Part shown: in pieces, positions 6,714 to 58,197 of the stretch | How the letters are laid out: every line of letters starts with the position of its first letter | How positions within the stretch are numbered: position 1 is the first letter of the stretch | Assembly: GCA_036741715.1 (NCBI GenBank) | Contig: DAINRR010000005.1 | Span: 25,203-89,202, forward strand | DNA: 64,000 bases | Reading direction: 5' to 3' | Source: Gemmatimonadales bacterium | Lineage (GTDB): Bacteria; Gemmatimonadota; Gemmatimonadetes; Gemmatimonadales; GWC2-71-9 | Made by a program: the position numbers and the translations under genes | The notes under the pieces: generated by a model | The model's database searches: none | What the model was told of the DNA's origin: nothing | The model's input: only the letters and a program-made list of their open reading frames with translations

Positions 6714-7919
6714 TCACCGCGCCGACGCCTCCAGTCTGGACGTCACGCTCGTCAGCTTTTCCGCCGAAGCATCGAGGACGGGATCATTGTTCTTCCGCGC
6801 GAGCGCCACCGCGCGCGCAAAGCTTTCACGCGCATTCTGCAATTCCCCGGCAGCCTCGTATCCGTCGCCCAGGCTGTCGAAGGTGTTCGCGGACTGTGGA
6901 TAGCGTTCCGTGTTCACCTTGAACACCGCGATCGCCTCCTGGGAGAGGTTGCGCCCGAGAAGGATGTACCCCAGCCGGTTGATCATCGGCTCGGTGACGG
7001 GGATCGTGTAGCCGTACTTCCGGGAAAGCGTCTCGTACCGCCGCTCGAGATCGGCCACGCTGCGCATCGTCGTGTCGAGCTCGAGCCGCAGGTCCGCGAA
7101 CATCGCCTCCAGCCCGTCGTAGAGCGACCGGTGCGGGATCGACCCGTGCGATTCCGCAGGCATGTGATGAAACTGCCACTGCATCGTGGCCGGGGCGTCT
7201 CGCTTCAGGATTTCCGCGATGCGCTGCGCGCTCGAGAGCATCTCGCCGCCCTCATTGCCTGTGGTCATGTAGAGCGATGCGCGAAGGTCGCGCTGCTTTG
7301 CGAGAAAGTCCGGGAGGGCCGACACCAGCGCCTGCTGGTTCCACCAGGTGGACGGGCTGATGGCGATGTACCCGTCGAACACCTCCGGCCGCGCCATCAG
7401 CGCGTGCAGGGCGAAGAGCCCGCCGAACGAGTGGCCCACCAGCACCCGGTAATCGAGCGTGCGATTCGTCTCGTCGAGATACGGGATCAGCTCGTCGCCC
7501 AGGAAGCGGAGGAACTGGTCGGCCCCGCCCGTGCGATCCCGGAATTGCGGGTCGTTCGTCGGCGGCGTGAGGTCGCGCGTGCGGTCCCGGTTGCCGACGC
7601 CCACCACGATCATCGGCGGAATCCGCTGATTGGCGACGAGGAAGTCCACCACCCCTGACGCATGGTGGAAATGTCCGTCGCCGTCCAGGAGGATCAGGAG
7701 CGGGTAGCGCTCGTTGTTCCGCTCGTACCCGCCTGGCCGATAGATCACGAGCGGATACTCCGCGCGCAGAATCGCCGAGCGGAACGTGGTGCGCTCGCCG
7801 ATGATGACGGGGAGTGACGGGGTCGTGAGGCTGGACGGCGGGCTTCCGCTCTGAGAGGAGAGCGGCGCAGCCCGGACGAGGACGGCGGCAGCCAGGACGA
7901 CGAACGTACGGATGCGCAT
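6714..7919 (-). CDS. alpha/beta hydrolase (putative esterase family) with C-terminal TPR-like region
   Basis: Signal peptide MRIRTFVVLAAAVLVRAAPLSSQ. Nucleophile elbow 'VGHSFGG'. 'PLLILLDGD' and 'ISPSTWW' are typical of the putative-esterase fold. The C-terminus is helical-repeat. Confidence 0.85.
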   Translation of the reverse strand: MRIRTFVVLAAAVLVRAAPLSSQSGSPPSSLTTPSLPVIIGERTTFRSAILRAEYPLVIYRPGGYERNNERYPLLILLDGDGHFHHASGVVDFLVANQRIPPMIVVGVGNRDRTRDLTPPTNDPQFRDRTGGADQFLRFLGDELIPYLDETNRTLDYRVLVGHSFGGLFALHALMARPEVFDGYIAISPSTWWNQQALVSALPDFLAKQRDLRASLYMTTGNEGGEMLSSAQRIAEILKRDAPATMQWQFHHMPAESHGSIPHRSLYDGLEAMFADLRLELDTTMRSVADLERRYETLSRKYGYTIPVTEPMINRLGYILLGRNLSQEAIAVFKVNTERYPQSANTFDSLGDGYEAAGELQNARESFARAVALARKNNDPVLDASAEKLTSVTSRLEASAR

Positions 7920-48857: not shown

Positions 48858-49490
48858 CTATCGCGCTCCCTCCGGACTCGCGCGATACAGCTGCAGGGAA
48901 ACCACCGCCAGCCACGCCCACCCCATCACCACACTGAACCAGATACCGGTGATCCCCGCCGGCCCGAGCATCGCGCCGCCGAAGAAGCCCAGGAGGACGG
49001 CGAGCCCGCTCAGCAGGGAGAAGCCGGCGAGCGCCTTCGCTCCTCGTCTCCTGAACGCAGCTGCGGCGGAGAAACAGCTGATCGCGAGCGCCATGAAGCC
49101 GAGCGTGCCGGCAATGAAGTGGATCATGCCGGCGGTGCTGATGGCGGTGGGAAAGCCTTCGGGCGTGCCGGGCGGGAACCCGTCCACGGGGTCCGCGCGA
49201 AAGACGGCTGCGACGAGCATGCCCGCTCCGAACACGGAGAGAAAGAAGCTCGTTGCGCGCGAGCCGAGCGCCCGGCGAATGCCCGCAGCGGCGGCGATGA
49301 CGAGAAGGCCCGAGACGACGAAATTCGCAGTCTGCACCCACCCGCCTGGTCCGTTCGCGAGGACGCTGAGCGGATGGCGCGCGAAGTCGAAGCCCTCGCG
49401 CGTGAAGGCCTGGGCGAGACCCACGGCAAGGTAGAGCGGGCCGACGATGACTCCGGAACGGAGAAGGGACTGCGTGGCGCGGTCAGCCAC
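48858..49490 (-). CDS. DUF998-like multi-TM membrane protein
   Basis: I place the start at GTG 49490 ((M)ADRATQSLLRSGVIVGPLYL), overlapping the amidase stop by 8 nt. It has six hydrophobic helices. The upstream part of track ORF 48858-49706 is implausible. Confidence 0.7.
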   Translation of the reverse strand: MADRATQSLLRSGVIVGPLYLAVGLAQAFTREGFDFARHPLSVLANGPGGWVQTANFVVSGLLVIAAAAGIRRALGSRATSFFLSVFGAGMLVAAVFRADPVDGFPPGTPEGFPTAISTAGMIHFIAGTLGFMALAISCFSAAAAFRRRGAKALAGFSLLSGLAVLLGFFGGAMLGPAGITGIWFSVVMGWAWLAVVSLQLYRASPEGAR

Positions 49491-51081
49491 CCGGCGCCCT
49501 GAACCGCTTCGACTGCCGCTCGTATGCATGCGCGAGCGCGAGCACCTGCGCGTCCTCGCCGGGCAGGCCGACGACCGAGAGATTGAGCGCCGGCATCCCG
49601 TCATCATCATACCCTGCCGGCACCGACACTTCCGGCAACCCGAGCCAGTTCCCGTAGCCGAGCGCGGTCCGGACATCGGGCCACTCGTCGGGGAGCGGGA
49701 ACGCATTGAACGGCATCGTCGGGTAGACCATCGCCTTCACGCCCGCCGTCCGCATCGCGCTCGCGAGGCTCGAGACCACTTCCTCCCGCGACTTGGCGAA
49801 CGATTGCCCCGCAGGATCCTGCGCCATCGGCTGTCCGAAGAGCGGCTCGCACTCTTCGAACGTCTCGGGAAGCACGTCGTAGAATTTCCGGTAGGCGGGA
49901 TAGCCGATGCGAACGGCTTCGCGCGGGTCGGCGGTGCGGCCGGCGAAATAGGTGTAGAGCGCGTTGGCGGTCGGCGCGGGGGAGCGCGGGTCGGGCCCCA
50001 CGTCACCCCTCTGCTCGGCGGCTTCGGTGAAGAGCGCGCGGAAATTGGCGAGCGTCACCGGCGCGTCGAAGCGATCGATGACGGCGCCGGCCGAGCGGAG
50101 ATCGGCGACCGCGCGATCCCACGTCGCCACGGCGCTCGGCGTCATCTGCGCGCGGGGCACGTGCGCCTCGACGACGCCCAGCTGCACGCCCTCGAGCGCA
50201 TCGTCGCGGAGCGAGGTGAGGCGTGTCCCGTCCCACAGCCCGGCGAGGGCCAGCGGGTCCGACGGATCGGCGCCGGCGATCACGGCGAGCATCAGCGCGG
50301 CATCGGTCACCGTGCGCGCGAGCGGGCCGTGCGTATCGAGGTACGGCCAGGTGGGAATGACGCCGGTGCGCGGCACGAGACCGAACGTCGGCTTCATGCC
50401 GACGACGCCGGTGCACACCGCCGGGATCCGGTTCGACCCGCCGTCATCGGTGCCGAGCGCCGCGAACGCCATTCCGCACGCGACGGCGACGGCCGACCCC
50501 GCGCTCGACCCACCGGGCGTGCGCGTGCGCGTGCGATCGTACGGATTGATCACCTGGCCCGTGTGACTGCTCGTCCCCTCGCCTTCATAGGCAAAATCAT
50601 CTGCCGCCGTCTTGCCGAGGACGATCGCGCCGGCAGCACGGAGGCGGGAGACCTCGAGCGCGTCGCGGGATACGGGACTCGGGAAGAGCCGGGCCCACTC
50701 GGCGCTCGACGCCGTCGTGGGAAGGCCGGCCATGTCGTAGATCGACTTCGCGAACATCGGCACGCCCTCGAGCGGGCGCCGGAGCGTGCCCGCCCTGCGC
50801 CGCGCATCGGCCGCGCGCGCCTCGTCGAGTGCCGTGGGCGCGAGCGCGTCGATGGCGTGGAGCGCCATGCCCTGCCCCCGGCACCGCTCGAGTGCCGCCG
50901 CCGTGACCTCGGCCGAGGACCACCGGCCACGATGGAAGCCGGCGAGATACTCGGCGATGGTGCCGTCGAGCGGATCGTCGTCGGAGCCGCCGCCGGAGCG
51001 GGACACGGCACAGCCGGGAATTGCGGTCATGGCGGCGAGGGCGGCGAGCCGGGCGATGGCGTCGCGTCGGGAGAGAGACAT
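49483..51081 (-). CDS. amidase-signature family amidase with twin-arginine (Tat) signal
   Basis: Start is ATG 51081: 'MSLSRRDAIARLAALAAMTAIPGCAVS'. AS signature is 'GGSSAGSAVAVACGMAFAALGTDDGGSNRIPA'. Confidence 0.9.
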   Translation of the reverse strand: MSLSRRDAIARLAALAAMTAIPGCAVSRSGGGSDDDPLDGTIAEYLAGFHRGRWSSAEVTAAALERCRGQGMALHAIDALAPTALDEARAADARRRAGTLRRPLEGVPMFAKSIYDMAGLPTTASSAEWARLFPSPVSRDALEVSRLRAAGAIVLGKTAADDFAYEGEGTSSHTGQVINPYDRTRTRTPGGSSAGSAVAVACGMAFAALGTDDGGSNRIPAVCTGVVGMKPTFGLVPRTGVIPTWPYLDTHGPLARTVTDAALMLAVIAGADPSDPLALAGLWDGTRLTSLRDDALEGVQLGVVEAHVPRAQMTPSAVATWDRAVADLRSAGAVIDRFDAPVTLANFRALFTEAAEQRGDVGPDPRSPAPTANALYTYFAGRTADPREAVRIGYPAYRKFYDVLPETFEECEPLFGQPMAQDPAGQSFAKSREEVVSSLASAMRTAGVKAMVYPTMPFNAFPLPDEWPDVRTALGYGNWLGLPEVSVPAGYDDDGMPALNLSVVGLPGEDAQVLALAHAYERQSKRFRAPGG

Positions 51082-51232
51082 GAGAGCAGGGTCGAAAGGA
51101 ATCGGAACGCGAGACTGGCGACTGCCAGGGAAGTCAACGGGCAACATACTGCGTGTCGGCCAGTTGCGCAGGGGATGCGCGGGAGCGGATCCGGAGCGAA
51201 AGCAGGGGGCGTCGGAGCACGATCACAGAAGC

Positions 51233-51263
51233 GCGCAGCGGGGCCGGGTCAGGGACCCGGCCC
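51233..51263. repeat. asymmetric GC hairpin element, left copy
   Basis: GCGCAGCG-GGGCCGGGT-caggg-ACCCGGCCC. Its exact reverse complement (apart from the loop) is at 51859-51889. Confidence 0.7.
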
Positions 51264-51294
51264 TACGTGAGCGGATTCGTGGGCTCCGTTTTTT

Positions 51295-51340
51295 CGCGGC
51301 TGAAGCCGCGGCTCGGCTGGTGGTCGCTGAAGCGACCTGG
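51295..51340. repeat. double-hairpin repeat element, orientation A
   Basis: CGCGGC-TGAA-GCCGCG, linker GCTCGGCTGGT, GGTCGC-TGAA-GCGACC. The same element occurs inverted at 51503, 51643, 51783 and 58022, and directly at 58152. Confidence 0.75.
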
Positions 51341-51416
51341 TGCCGTGTGCGGGCGAGGACCGAGCCCTGTGATGACATCCGGAGCGTGTCCGGAGGGGAA
51401 CGGAGGGTACTCGGGA

Positions 51417-51829
51417 TCCCACGGTCGCCCGGGAAGAATCGCGGGAATCAGGTTTCAGCTACCGGGCGCCCCGGGGTGCAACGTCGGCGGGCATGAGCGG
51501 AGCCAGGTCGCTTCAGCGACCACCATCTGAGCCGCGGCTTCAGCCGCGAGCGAGAGGCATCCCGCGGTCGTCCGAGGAAATTGCGGGATAAAATCTCAGA
51601 GGCGGGGCGCCCCGGGTGCGACGGCCGCGGGCATGAGCGGAGCCAGGTCGCTTCAGCGACCACCAGCCGAGCCGCGGCTTCAGCCGCGAGCGAGAGGCAT
51701 CCCGCGGTCGTCCGAGGAAATTGCGGGATAAAATCTCAGAGGCGGGGCGCCCCGGGTGCGACGGCCGCGGGCATGAGCGGAGCCAGGTCGCTTCAGCGAC
51801 CACCAGCCGAGCCGCGGCTTCAGCCGCGA
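51417..51829. repeat. direct tandem repeat, 140-bp period, about 3 copies, each carrying one inverted double-hairpin element
   Basis: Units 51491-51630 and 51631-51770 differ at only 2 positions by my reading (CATCTGA vs CAGCCGA). The third unit is truncated near 51829. A diverged partial unit precedes at about 51417-51490. Elements lie at 51503-51548, 51643-51688 and 51783-51828. Confidence 0.8.
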
Positions 51830-51858
51830 ACGAGCCGGGACGCCGACATATGAACACA

Positions 51859-51889
51859 GGGCCGGGTCATCGACCCGGCCCCGCTGCGC
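51859..51889. repeat. asymmetric GC hairpin element, right (inverted) copy; possible terminator of the cupin gene
   Basis: GGGCCGGGT-catcg-ACCCGGCCC-CGCTGCGC, 37 nt downstream of the cupin gene stop (51926, minus strand). Confidence 0.7.
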
Positions 51890-51925
51890 TCGCATGAAAT
51901 CGCGCGCCCGGAAACTCCCGTCAAT

Positions 51926-52498
51926 TCAGAACGGGCAGTTCGTCGGCGCCGGCGCGTCGATGCGGAGCGGTTTGCCGGGAGGCGCCAGGTACACCACCGT
52001 ATTCACGGCAGGCTCGTCCGTCTCGTTCCGCGCGATGTGCGCATGCTCCCCCTTGTCGAGATAGCCCTGCCCTGCCGTACGCACGATCGGCGTGCAGGTC
52101 GGATCGTCCGACTCGTAGAACGTCATCGTGCCGGACAGCACCTGAATGAAGACCGGCCCCGGGTGGCGGTGCCAACCGCTGTACGAGCCGGGCGCGAAGT
52201 TGATCGACTGGACCGCCACGTCGAGTCCGCGGAGCGCCTTGACCTCCACGTGCCAGTCGCCCTCGATCCGCTTGACCTTGAAGGTCTGCTCGCCCGGGGT
52301 GGTGAAGGTGGCGCGTCCGAGCGGTGTGGAGCTCGACCCGGACCCGACGGTGAAATGCATGTCCTCGTGGGCGTCGGTCGTCATCGGAACGGCCGGGGGC
52401 GCGGTGGCCGGCTCGAACGGCTTCTCGGCATCGGTGCAGGCGAGGAATGGTGCGCCCAGCAGAACGACGGCCAGCGGATAACGGCGATGAAAACGCAT
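51926..52498 (-). CDS. cupin-domain lipoprotein
   Basis: Start is ATG 52498 with GGAGG 6 nt upstream. Signal/lipobox is 'MRFHRRYPLAVVLLGAPFLAC'. Cupin core is 'GSYSGWHRHPGPVFIQVLSGTMTFYE...GEHAHIARN'. Confidence 0.8.
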   Translation of the reverse strand: MRFHRRYPLAVVLLGAPFLACTDAEKPFEPATAPPAVPMTTDAHEDMHFTVGSGSSSTPLGRATFTTPGEQTFKVKRIEGDWHVEVKALRGLDVAVQSINFAPGSYSGWHRHPGPVFIQVLSGTMTFYESDDPTCTPIVRTAGQGYLDKGEHAHIARNETDEPAVNTVVYLAPPGKPLRIDAPAPTNCPF

Positions 52499-52677
52499 GA
52501 GTGCCTCCAGGGGGAAAGTGCCTCGGGAGGGCGCAGCAATCTGTCCGCGGTTCCGGCCGAGCCATATATTGGCGTCGAACGAGCCGGGTGCTCCCTCTTC
52601 CCCTTGTACGGGATGCGCTGGCGAATCCCGACATCGCCGTTTTCCGCGAATCGTGCCGCCTTCCCGGAGAGCCCTCC

Positions 52678-53238
52678 ATGGATCGTGATGCGCCGCCGTC
52701 CGGTGCCGGCGGGATGCCCGGCAGCGGGGGGCAGGAGTCGCTCGAACGGGTCGTCGCACTCACCTATCAGGACCTGCGTGCGATCGCGCATCGCCGGCTC
52801 AGGGCGCACGCTCGCGGCGGCACGCTGTCCACGACGGCGCTCGTGCACGAGGCCTACCTCAAGCTTTTTCATGCCTCGCGCGCCTCGTGGGAAGACGTCG
52901 CGCACTTCCTCGCGCTCGCGTCGACCGCGATGCGGCACGTGCTGATCGATCGCGCGCGCGAGCGCAGCGCCCTCAAGCGCGGCGGCGCGCGGCAGCGGAT
53001 CTCCCTCGATGCCGATGCACTCGCCATCGAGGACCAGCCCGATGCCCTGCTGCAGCTCGACGACGCGCTCGATCGCCTCGCGAAGCTCGAGCCGCGCCTC
53101 GCGCAGGTCGTGGAGTGCCGCTTCTTCGGCGGCCTCACGGAGCCGGAGACCGCGGAGGCGCTCGGCGTCACCGAGCGCACCGTGCAGCGGGACTGGGTCA
53201 AGGCGCGCGTGCTGCTGCGCCGGCTCCTCGGGCCCTGA
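52678..53238 (+). CDS. ECF-type sigma-70 family RNA polymerase sigma factor
   Basis: ATG 52678 (GGAGAG upstream). Region 2 is 'TTALVHEAYLKLF...FLALASTAMRHVLIDRAR'. Region 4 is 'LAQVVECRFFGGLTEPETAEALGVTERTVQRDW'. Confidence 0.9.
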   Translation: MDRDAPPSGAGGMPGSGGQESLERVVALTYQDLRAIAHRRLRAHARGGTLSTTALVHEAYLKLFHASRASWEDVAHFLALASTAMRHVLIDRARERSALKRGGARQRISLDADALAIEDQPDALLQLDDALDRLAKLEPRLAQVVECRFFGGLTEPETAEALGVTERTVQRDWVKARVLLRRLLGP

Positions 53239-53255
53239 CCGCCCGCGCATCGCCC

Positions 53256-56207
<2,952 letters not shown>

Positions 56208-56235
56208 GGCGGAAGCCTGGGCGTGACGGCCGACA

Positions 56236-57843
56236 TCAGTCGGCCAGAAATGCGCGCGCCTCGCCGATCGCCGCGCGCCGGCTGTCGCCGGCCACCACGA
56301 GCAGCGCCTCGTAGGAGGCGCGCGCCATCCCGGTATCGCCCACCGTGCGGGCGGCGCGCGCCGAGCCGAGCAGGCTATTGAAGCGGCGCGGATAGAGGTC
56401 GAGCGATCGCCGATAGGCGGCGAGAGCTTCGGCCGGGCGTTCCTGCGTGAGGAGCAGGTCGCCGAGGAGCTCGTGCGCCGGGAGTGTCGGCGCCGGCGTG
56501 ACGGCGTGCTTCGGCGTTGCGAGCTCGAGCTCGGCCGCCGCGGTCATGAGCGCCACCGCCGAGTCGGCGTGTCGTTCGCCTTGCAGGATCCATGCATCGA
56601 GCTCGAGCTGGAGAACGCGGATGTTGCGAGCGAAGAGCGCTTCGCCCGCTGCGGTTGCAGCGCGCTCGAGGGCGGCGAGGCGCGCCGCCGCCTCCCGCGC
56701 CGGCGGAAGGGACGACGCGCGGGCGGCGCCGAGGCCGCGCGCAAACCAGGTGATCGCCTCGGGCCAGGGAAAGCGGTCCCAGGCGAGCGTTGCGGGTGCG
56801 CGGACCGGCAACGCGGCCGCCTCGAGCCAGGACTTTCGCTCCAGCGCGTCACGCGCGGCGGTAGAGGCGAGGTGGAACGCCGTCTTGAAGGTGGGCTCGA
56901 GTCGCGGAGTGGCGCGGAGCCGGTGGAGCTCCGCACGGGCGGCGCTGTCCGCACCGAGCTGAAGCAGGGCGTAGACGAGGTACTCGATCGCGTGGGGGAA
57001 TTCGTCCCACACCAGCTCTCGCTGCTCGCCCGCGGGGTGCGCGAGCGCCGCCTCCGCCGCGCGCCGGTTGCCCGCGATCACGGCGAGCCAGTCGCCCTGC
57101 CGCACGTAGATGTGCGTCGGCATGTGCAGCGCATGCGGATTCTCCGGGGCCTCGGCGGCGTAGCGCCGCACCACCTCCGGCGATCGCCCCTCACGACCCG
57201 GTGCATCGTTGGCGTGCACGAGATAGTGCTGCGCGCCCGGGTGGTGCGGATTGCGGTCGAGGAGGCCGAGCAGCAGCGCCGCAGCGCGATCCGCATTCCG
57301 TGAGGACGACGAGTCGGATGGCGCGACGGCGAGAAGGGCGAGCGCACGGAACGCCGCGATCTCGTCGTCATCGGGGTGCGCAGCGTGAGCCTCCGCCATC
57401 GCCCGCTCCCACCGCCGGATGCGCTCCCAGTAATCCGCTGCCGGCTCGCGATAGAACGCCTCCGCCGCGGCGATGAGGCTGCGCTCGCGAGGTCCCGGAT
57501 CCTGCGCGAGTGCGTCCGCAACGGCTTCCCGCCCGCGGCGCAGCTCTTCCGGCCCCGGCCGCGTGGGCCAGAGCGGCTGGAAAAGGCTCATGGCCACGCC
57601 CCAGTGCGCGATGGCGCAACGGGGATCGATCCGCGCCGCGCGCCTGAACGCCGCGCGCGCTTCCGGGTACGTCATGTGATGCAACAGGACCAGTCCCTGC
57701 TCGAACGCGGCCCGAGCCGGCGCCGTGCACGCGACGGACGGCGCACGCGCGCCGCTCGACGATGGGACCTGGGCGGACGCAGTCATCGGGATCGCAGCCA
57801 GGGCGGCGATGACCGCGACGATCGGGACACTGGCACGGGGCAT
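56236..57843 (-). CDS. secreted all-helical (TPR-like) protein, unknown function
   Basis: Start trimmed to ATG 57843 (MPRASVPIVAVIAALAAIPMTASAQ). It is helical-repeat throughout, with conserved-looking 'HYLVHANDAPG' and 'HALHMPTHIY'. Confidence 0.75.
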   Translation of the reverse strand: MPRASVPIVAVIAALAAIPMTASAQVPSSSGARAPSVACTAPARAAFEQGLVLLHHMTYPEARAAFRRAARIDPRCAIAHWGVAMSLFQPLWPTRPGPEELRRGREAVADALAQDPGPRERSLIAAAEAFYREPAADYWERIRRWERAMAEAHAAHPDDDEIAAFRALALLAVAPSDSSSSRNADRAAALLLGLLDRNPHHPGAQHYLVHANDAPGREGRSPEVVRRYAAEAPENPHALHMPTHIYVRQGDWLAVIAGNRRAAEAALAHPAGEQRELVWDEFPHAIEYLVYALLQLGADSAARAELHRLRATPRLEPTFKTAFHLASTAARDALERKSWLEAAALPVRAPATLAWDRFPWPEAITWFARGLGAARASSLPPAREAAARLAALERAATAAGEALFARNIRVLQLELDAWILQGERHADSAVALMTAAAELELATPKHAVTPAPTLPAHELLGDLLLTQERPAEALAAYRRSLDLYPRRFNSLLGSARAARTVGDTGMARASYEALLVVAGDSRRAAIGEARAFLAD

Positions 57844-58021
57844 CTGTGCTCCAGGCGGAATGCGCCCACCATATTCGCCGCGGGAAGGCGGAGGGGCAAG
57901 CACGATCAGACCACTCGGGCGGGACGGCAGGGCTCTCACGACAGAAGAGGCATTCCTCGGCTGGGGAGCGTCGATGCGGAGACCTCAGCCTGGGCGCGCG
58001 AAGTAATTCGCCGGGTTCTGC

Positions 58022-58064
58022 GCCCGCTTCAGCGGGCACCAGCCGAGCCGCGGCTTCAGCCGCG
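58022..58064. repeat. double-hairpin repeat element, inverted orientation, variant second stem
   Basis: GCCCGC-TTCA-GCGGGC, linker ACCAGCCGAGC, CGCGGC-TTCA-GCCGCG. Confidence 0.75.
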
Positions 58065-58095
58065 AATGCGCGCGATCCGCGTCCCTGCGGACAAG

Positions 58096-58120
58096 GGGCC
58101 CGGGTCTCCGACCCGGGCCC
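58096..58120. repeat. GC hairpin related to the 51-kb hairpin elements
   Basis: GGGCCCGGGT-ctccg-ACCCGGGCCC followed by TTCTC. It sits between the two 58-kb double-hairpin elements. Confidence 0.6.
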
Positions 58121-58151
58121 TTCTCGAACAAACACGTTATCCTCGCGGTCT

Positions 58152-58197
58152 CGCGGCTGAAGCCGCGGCTCGGCTGGTGGCCCCTGAAGGGGCCTGG
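58152..58197. repeat. double-hairpin repeat element, orientation A, variant second stem
   Basis: CGCGGC-TGAA-GCCGCG, linker GCTCGGCTGGT, GGCCCC-TGAA-GGGGCC, then TGG. Confidence 0.75.

Follow-up and report, generated by a model that had tools for sequence, protein, structure and literature searches.

A probable BIME-like cluster of double-hairpin repeats between an amidase gene and a cupin gene in a Gemmatimonadales genome

The DNA analysed in this study is a stretch of 64,000 nt from a Gemmatimonadales bacterium (the window; coordinates are positions in it unless a contig is named), which sits in a 3.26-Mb metagenome-assembled genome (MAG) of 138 contigs, 69% GC and 98% completeness, called G000 here. 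Our subject is the gap between an amidase gene and a cupin gene at 51082-51925. The gap is 844 nt long and is bounded by the amidase start codon, which reaches to 51081, and by the cupin stop codon, which occupies the positions from 51926 on. It contains hairpins, double hairpins and a tandem array, which we believe are very probably a cluster of repetitive extragenic palindrome (REP)-type elements arranged like a bacterial interspersed mosaic element (BIME). The genes and features at the locus, with a second cluster further along the window, are as follows.

49483 to 51081, - strand: amidase gene with a Tat-type signal (PF01425, 243 bits)
51233 to 51889, no strand: the whole cluster, probably BIME-like, 657 nt, bracketed by composite inverted repeats
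51233 to 51263, + strand: left T hairpin, the outer module of the left composite unit (from the sequence)
51295 to 51340, + strand: REP-like double hairpin, copy 1, 46 nt (covariance model R1, 80 bits)
51463 to 51829, - strand: direct tandem array of 140-nt units, 2.6 copies (Tandem Repeats Finder and self-comparison)
51503 to 51548, - strand: double hairpin, copy 2, with 2 linker mismatches (CTCAGATG) (sequence match)
51643 to 51688, - strand: double hairpin, copy 3, exact (sequence match)
51783 to 51828, - strand: double hairpin, copy 4, exact, which with the right T hairpin makes the right composite unit (sequence match)
51859 to 51889, - strand: right T hairpin with its foot, 46 nt past the cupin stop codon (sequence and inverted-repeat comparison)
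51926 to 52759, - strand: gene for an exported cupin-domain protein, 3' end toward the cluster (PF07883, 35 bits)
58019 to 58197, no strand: second cluster of the family, between divergent TPR and DUF2911 genes (sequence match)

The double hairpin is made of two stems, H1 and H2, and a linker. In copy 1, H1 is CGCGGC-TGAA-GCCGCG, the linker is GCTCGGCTGGT and H2 is GGTCGC-TGAA-GCGACC. The left T hairpin, read at 51233-51263 as GGGCCGGGT-N5-ACCCGGCCC, is composed of an 8-nt foot GCGCAGCG, a stem GGGCCGGGT(C), a loop of 3-5 nt and the closing arm (G)ACCCGGCCC. The T hairpin, a 32-nt spacer and the double hairpin together form a composite inverted repeat of approximately 108 nt with 83% identity, and the ends of the cluster fold into one long stem as single-stranded DNA (-228 kcal/mol, z = -15.5). 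The first-pass annotation of the window had reported the non-coding gap, its features at these positions and three inverted double hairpins at 51503, 51643 and 51783 within a 140-nt array, and all of this was confirmed in the sequence, the copy at 51503 being the one with mismatches. It had also called the right hairpin an exact inverted copy of the left one, which did not hold. The stem and the 8-nt foot are the same, three loop bases differ (AGG against GAT once inverted), and the inverted repeat extends over the whole composite.

Tandem Repeats Finder reported a single array at 51464-51834 with a period of 140, 2.6 copies and 96% matches, and a more diverged partial unit lies at its left, at approximately 51444-51486. 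When 51487-51689 was compared at an offset of 140, there were only 2 mismatches in 203 positions, at 51526 and 51528, as had been counted earlier for the two full units. Each 140-nt unit consists of one - strand double hairpin and a 94-nt local spacer, which carries a CGGGGCGCCCCG palindrome and an ATCCCGC-N17-GCGGGAT hairpin. No second copy of this spacer was found in G000 or in its genus; therefore, the unit is a REP plus neighbouring local DNA. The two-mismatch identity suggests that the last amplification step was recent, in agreement with the first-pass annotation. We propose that the right composite unit and 94 nt of adjoining local DNA were amplified once long ago and once very recently, likely when the direct 46-nt copies recombined unequally or replication slipped between them, a route that would require no transposase. 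A weak terminator-like site is also present in each unit on the - strand.

The elements of this gap belong to a dispersed family. The 16-nt H1 occurs 21 times in the 3.26 Mb of G000, and by our own estimate approximately 0.02 occurrences would be expected by chance at 69% GC. A 25-nt core of the element was matched 6 times in the window, compared with 0.00 for 100 shuffled versions. All 21 copies fall into 8 intergenic clusters, which are distributed over contigs C5 (with three, two of which lie within the window), C29, C96 and C97. Perfect N5-CTGAAG-N5' hairpins number 41 in the genome, 40 of them inside the 3.7 kb occupied by the clusters. Both orientations are mixed in every cluster, and the clusters are mosaics in which the same modules appear in differing orders and numbers, for example:

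C5a (window 51233-51889): T, +, then -, -, -, T
C5b (window 58019-58197): -, T, +
C29: +, -, T
C96a: +, +, + at 110-nt spacing, then -, T
C5c and C97b: arrays with a period of approximately 130 nt that reach the contig ends

The second cluster in the window is thus composed of a - double hairpin (58019-58064), a T hairpin (58098-58118) and a + double hairpin (58152-58197). In this genus, the double hairpin is often accompanied by a GC-rich T hairpin approximately 35 nt 5' of H1. The T core, CCGGGTC-N3-GACCCGG, occurs 7 times in the genome, always approximately 32-37 nt 5' of an H1 or double hairpin, and the same pairing of T and H1 is seen in the relative G003. We considered whether T is a common terminator sequence of the whole genome and rejected this, the exact core being confined to the clusters. 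Judging from these positions, T is a terminator-like module travelling with the repeat. As a likely side effect, we predict that the cupin transcript may be terminated or stabilised by the T hairpin and by further stable hairpins of the cluster, and that these may also insulate the amidase gene. Looser GGCCGGG-type hairpins with T runs also occur outside the clusters and resemble ordinary terminators.

The paired structure of the element is conserved through compensatory changes. In G000, H1 and the linker GCTCGGCT are invariant, and the H2 stems vary (GGTCGC, GCCCGC, GGCCCC, TCGGC, TCCGC, GGCGGC and GGCCGC) with a partner that always matches. Of the 6 H2 pairs in the own-genome alignment, 5 vary at both positions and none at a single position; 98.7% of the cells are paired, compared with 25-53% in slid registers. 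In the alignment across genomes, which was fitted to the model and so leans to structure, two-sided changes affect 11 of 12 pairs; H1 also covaries there (CTCGGC/GCCGAG, CGCCGC/GCGGCG and CGCGAC/GTCGCG). Single-sided pair changes, such as G-C to G-U, are almost absent from both alignments. The loops are constant as T(G/A)AA and the linker as (G/A)CTCGGC, and the H2 loop is CTGAAG on a variable stem. The GTAG or CGTC end tetranucleotide of known REPs is absent from the alignments, and the unpaired sequence that is conserved is that of the internal linker, (G/A)CTCGGC. Two 6-bp stems kept across many extragenic copies are what is expected of a REP, and the repeated and alternating orientations, the linkers and the tandem reiteration with flanking DNA are what has been described for BIME clusters (PMC3733652).

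A covariance model of the 53-nt unit, R1, was scanned over 41 related genomes (genomes, contigs and loci are named by G, C and L numbers where they have to be told apart). The family was found in 22 of them, and 17 had more than a stray weak match, with 5-33 copies each. The carriers are nearly all in the family of the window, with one genus of a neighbouring family. Genes of the Y1_Tnp type were located beside or between R1 matches in G002, G005, G008, G011, G012, G020 and G022. The enzymes of G002, G005, G011, G012, G020, G022 and G024 were compared, with the G008 gene left out, and they fall into a single clade; their identity is 47-85% to the G022 reference and only approximately 30% to the Y1 protein of contig C39 in G000. 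They share the pattern MRHRLYxHxxWTT ... HxHLL ... Y---Q--HH, with RH instead of HH in some members, and score 48-89 bits with PF01797.

The alignment of this clade was then scanned over one genome per GTDB species and gave 51 loci, which are all in Gemmatimonadales or Gemmatimonadota MAGs, except for one weak match. R1 matches lay within 300 nt of the gene on both sides in 34 of the 51 loci, on one side in 9 and on neither side in 8. Usually the copy upstream of the gene is + and the one downstream is -, which makes the flanks inverted, and these often carry several copies in both orientations. No significant R1 match was found at the non-cognate Y1 loci (n = 6). All seven relatives with the cognate clade fall among the 18 element-bearing genomes of the 41 (hypergeometric p of approximately 0.0014 by our own calculation), and most genomes carry one cognate copy. 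A Y1 gene between inverted REP copies is the defining layout of the REPtron (PMC3333891), and the position of the Y1 clade of the relatives between inverted copies of the element supports the REP/BIME reading. The relatives G017 and G021 carry the element without any Y1 gene, which indicates that orphan repeat populations exist.

The same-genus REPtrons have a further feature. A small inner hairpin, GTCGCC-N4-GGCGAC, brackets the enzyme gene (G002:C146:2363-2740 and G005:C108:292-669) in inverted orientation, and the double hairpins lie further out (inner hairpins at 2296-2318 and 2800-2826 of L044, G002:C146, and at 206-226 and 698-720 of L045, G005:C108).

Comparison of the junction in the genus showed gain or loss of the elements. 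In G002, a member of the same genus, a spacer of approximately 215 nt, free of the element, separates the amidase and cupin genes. Between the amidase and cupin genes of G003 lies the TPR gene, and a REP copy follows the 4.3-kb cupin block; in the window, the TPR gene sits 4.3 kb further on, beside the second cluster. With A for the amidase, B for the TPR gene and C for the cupin block, the order is A-B-C-REP in G003 versus A-REP-C-B-REP in G000. No T hairpin follows the cupin gene in G002 or G003; therefore, T arrived with the composite, and the idea of a pre-existing terminator that was targeted by the elements was rejected here. The cognate REPtron of G002 is flanked by a small gene and a hydrolase gene, which in G000 are on separate contigs (C29 and C96), each followed by a REP doublet, and in G005 are adjacent, 19 nt apart.

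Taking these results together, we consider it highly probable that the gap holds a BIME-like cluster of REP-type elements from a family specific to the order Gemmatimonadales. The locus itself is an ordinary cluster of the family with a recent local duplication. The first-pass annotation had named a REP/BIME-like family, a MITE-like (miniature inverted-repeat transposable element) family and a tandemly duplicated structured RNA as candidates. The covariance-model scan that it had proposed came out in favour of the first, with the motif dispersed between genes in G000 and present in 22 of 41 relatives. The search that it had suggested for a transposase gene succeeded in the relatives, where the cognate clade is flanked by the element, and failed in G000, whose sole Y1 gene is non-cognate and unflanked.

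E. coli TnpA-REP and IS608 TnpA have been shown to cut and rejoin hairpin single-stranded DNA. By analogy with them, the cognate enzyme would recognise the folded hairpins and the linker on single-stranded DNA, cut them and rejoin them, and this would seed copies between genes. Two composite units, each with T, H1 and H2, would have ended up in convergent orientation in the stretch from the cupin stop codon to the promoter region of the amidase gene. A wider proposal is that the order has a separate REP system, in which a subclass-1.2-like Y1 enzyme (Y---Q--HH), recruited independently of the class 2 REP-associated tyrosine transposases (RAYTs), maintains a double-hairpin repeat that is read through its single-stranded CTCGGC linker. 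The system would spread over short distances to give REP-rich regions of tens of kb, mark changes of gene order and, in this genus, carry a portable terminator-like hairpin. For this wider proposal we judge the chances to be even.

Several observations weigh against this reading. Binding, cleavage and transposition by the enzyme are predictions. The boundaries and target site of the insertion are not definable, as the spacers of G000 and G002 align no further than the GGCAACATACTGC motif. REPs are typically present in approximately 100 to >1000 copies per genome, spread over the chromosome. The 21 copies of G000 (5-33 in the relatives) are far fewer than the hundreds typical of proteobacterial REPs, and they are clustered regionally, on 4 contigs, instead of being dispersed. 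The assembly of G000 has only one Y1 gene (PF01797), C39:8232-8573, which is of a different clade and has no flanking elements, and a tblastn search of the whole assembly with four cognate enzymes returned only this gene and noise. The C39 gene was rejected as the partner of the repeats for its lack of flanking elements and its identity of only approximately 30% to the cognate clade. Two contigs end inside arrays of the family and the shortest contig is 2,475 nt long, so an enclosed gene of approximately 0.4 kb, on a short contig bounded by repeats, could have dropped from the bin. The 21 copies are either orphans or served by such a repeat-enclosed gene that was lost from the assembly. The C39 gene (L021) also has a Y---Q--HH motif (YLLNQERHH); it is followed by two GGCCCCGGGC-N4-GCCCGGGGCC hairpins, and near relatives, judged by alignment to the same query, are present in G001 and G003.

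The copy number of the tandem array also rests on a short-read-type MAG assembly. The array, or the number of its units, might be an assembly artefact, in which case the elements themselves would still be real. The fragmentation of the MAG into 138 contigs, the ends of C5 and C97 inside tandem arrays of the family and the breaking of contigs of related MAGs at repeats would all be in keeping with an artefact. However, two positions distinguish the units, unique sequence adjoins the array at either end, and arrays of the same family with other periods (65, 110 and 130 nt) are found in other clusters and in independent assemblies of relatives. We regard an artefact as rather unlikely.

The most serious rival concerns the enzyme, which could be an ordinary IS200-type transposase with ends that resemble REPs. 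The Y1 gene would then be an autonomous insertion sequence (IS) of the IS200/IS605 type, the double hairpins would be its ends, and the intergenic copies would be miniature derivatives, like palindrome-associated transposable elements (PATEs) or MITEs. The G022 enzyme passes the NCBIfam IS200 model NF033573 (79 bits, cut-off 55) and fails the RAYT model NF047646 (35.6 bits, cut-off 80), and the G005 enzyme passes neither (45.6 and 19.3 bits, respectively). By these scores, NCBIfam places the clade nearer the IS200 transposases. The Y---Q tyrosine motif is of the class 1 type (PMC6006769), G022 has three copies of the enzyme gene and a remnant, and the copy numbers of the small element are low. 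However, IS200/IS605 ends are two distinct hairpins on the same strand, as established for IS608 (PMC3333891), whereas the flanks here are inverted copies of one element, often several copies in both orientations, and identical multi-copy units were not found. The three G022 genes are only 82-85% identical in protein and are therefore not products of recent transposition, and a single cognate copy is present in most genomes. The class 2 RAYT signature Y---NP (Quentin et al. 2018, PMC6006769) is replaced in this clade by Y---Q--HH. The group with this motif, subclass 1.2, was reported to have no IS properties and no associated structures (Quentin et al. 2018, PMC6006769); low copy number and proximity to IS200 also fit this subclass, to which we assign the clade by motif only. 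The difference between the two readings is partly one of degree, and we consider an ordinary IS improbable. The remnant in G022 is a decayed cognate gene with a frame break at 7268-7385 of L035 (G022:C10), beside R1 matches at 7210 and 7386.

A very small probability is given to structured RNA. The units would in that case be RNA genes or cis-regulatory elements, read from the - strand with the cupin and amidase genes and duplicated in tandem, and one can point to the compensatory changes that keep both stems, to the shared direction of the three array copies and both flanking genes and to the weak terminator-like site of each unit. However, an Rfam scan of 50.5-52.5 kb at E values up to 10 returned noise only (best score 18 bits against a gathering score of 31; E at least 1.4). 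Both orientations occur in every cluster, within single gaps, and the flanking genes are functionally unrelated. The near absence of one-sided changes is expected if both DNA strands must fold. The element is missing from the same junction in G002, and it is physically linked to one clade of transposase genes.

The whole 657-nt segment could also be a single non-autonomous MITE, bearing terminal inverted repeats of 108 nt and mobilised by a transposase of the DDE type. The composite inverted repeats, and the pairing of the ends as a single long stem, speak for this. However, neither the 94-nt spacer nor the 160 nt that lie to the left of the array, which make up the interior, recurs elsewhere in the genome or genus, no target-site duplication is visible beside 51233 or 51889, and other clusters reuse the modules in other orders and numbers, which fits a mosaic of small units. 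This explanation has the slightest chance of the four. Integron attC sites, CRISPR and riboswitches were rejected on anatomy, given the two orientations, the identical "spacers" and the unrelated neighbour genes.

Compared with known systems, the REP/BIME reading has both likenesses and differences. Among domesticated transposases that maintain populations of small repeats in bacterial genomes, the REP/RAYT system is the best known, and to our knowledge it has been studied almost entirely in Proteobacteria and with class 2 enzymes. Short extragenic hairpin repeats, clusters of mixed orientation with variable linkers, tandem units with flanking DNA, a Y1 HUH gene between inverted repeat copies, a patchy lineage-specific distribution and repeats that persist without the enzyme in some genomes are shared with the proteobacterial systems, for example E. 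coli RayT/TnpA-REP and the Pseudomonas REPINs/RAYTs (PMC3333891, PMC3479197, PMC3733652). In contrast, the Gemmatimonadales repeat is bipartite with a single-stranded CTCGGC linker in place of a GTAG/CGTC tag, it is concentrated in regions of tens of kb at 5-33 copies per genome instead of hundreds, and its enzyme has no class 2 Y---NP motif and scores below the cut-off of the NCBIfam RAYT model.

The enzyme resembles Y1 subclass 1.2 in its Y---Q--HH (or RH) motif, its HuH of H-V/L/I-H, its short length, its low copy number and its nearness to IS200 (PMC6006769). Unlike the described members of that subclass, its genes lie in Gemmatimonadales and are flanked by a defined family of hairpin repeats. 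Class 3 Y1 proteins, found in Solibacter usitatus and others, were seen by the same authors as intermediates between IS and REPtron (PMC6006769). Several related gene copies are possible per genome in both groups, but class 3 has a Y----Q motif and a CnGA hairpin foot, whereas the Gemmatimonadales enzyme has Y---Q--HH, no such foot and far lower copy numbers. With IS200/IS605 elements (IS608, ISDra2 and PATEs), the clade shares the enzyme family (PF01797, NF033573) and, as the likely chemistry, recognition of subterminal single-stranded hairpins; unlike them, it has inverted copies of one element as ends, no tnpB and no identical multi-copy IS units. The BOX elements of Streptococcus pneumoniae are likewise intergenic and modular (T, H1, H2 and variable tails in our case), with sub-modules that vary in tandem number, but there is no sequence relationship and BOX has no associated Y1 enzyme.

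No literature linking REP or RAYT to Gemmatimonadota was found beyond incidental word matches, and we found no published description of double-hairpin repeats arranged around an IS200-like Y1 gene in soil Gemmatimonadales. Taken alone, the locus is a modest result. If the wider proposal is true, hairpin repeats would have been paired with a Y1 enzyme a second time, independently, and in a soil phylum that has been little studied; the orphan subclass 1.2 would gain a testable substrate, and the clade would be a natural intermediate between IS and REPtrons. In practice, the repeats break MAG assemblies, with contigs that end in repeats, and coincide with synteny breakpoints inside the genus. They can also give neighbouring genes stop codons and terminator-like hairpins, which is relevant to the annotation of Gemmatimonadales genomes.

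Several minor observations were made. In G000, the copies concentrate on C5 (76-93 kb), C97, C96 and C29. In G022, an assembly of 10 contigs, 22 of 32 copies are in three regions of at most 33 kb (C10:28-55 kb, C8:1-23 kb and C1:32-65 kb), one of which holds two enzyme genes and the remnant. This regional concentration could reflect short-range spread or plasticity zones. When window 51082-58197 was compared with L120 (G003:C31:1-7178), both clusters of the window were at changed junctions. Three genomes of the genus carry a motif, GGCAACATACTGCG, approximately 60-70 nt ahead of the amidase start (window 51139-51153; L120, approximately 1306-1320; and L122, G002:C303), and the rest of the spacer is unalignable. 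From its position, the motif may be a promoter or operator.

Arrays of short words adjoin some REP clusters: (CTCGCCC)n follows C96a (C96:1190-1240), and (GCGCTCTC)n immediately precedes the C96b double hairpin (C96:4885-4915). The end of C5 (93340-93419) and the end of C97 (9000-9122) carry near-identical tandem units of approximately 130 nt in opposite orientation. Judging from these units, the two ends probably join through a collapsed array, and C5 and C97 may be neighbours. Contigs of related MAGs also break at these repeats. Past the end of the window, at G000:C5:93033-93041, a repeat gives a globin-like open reading frame its last three codons and its stop, which is the TGA of the H1 loop (CGCGGC-TGA-A).

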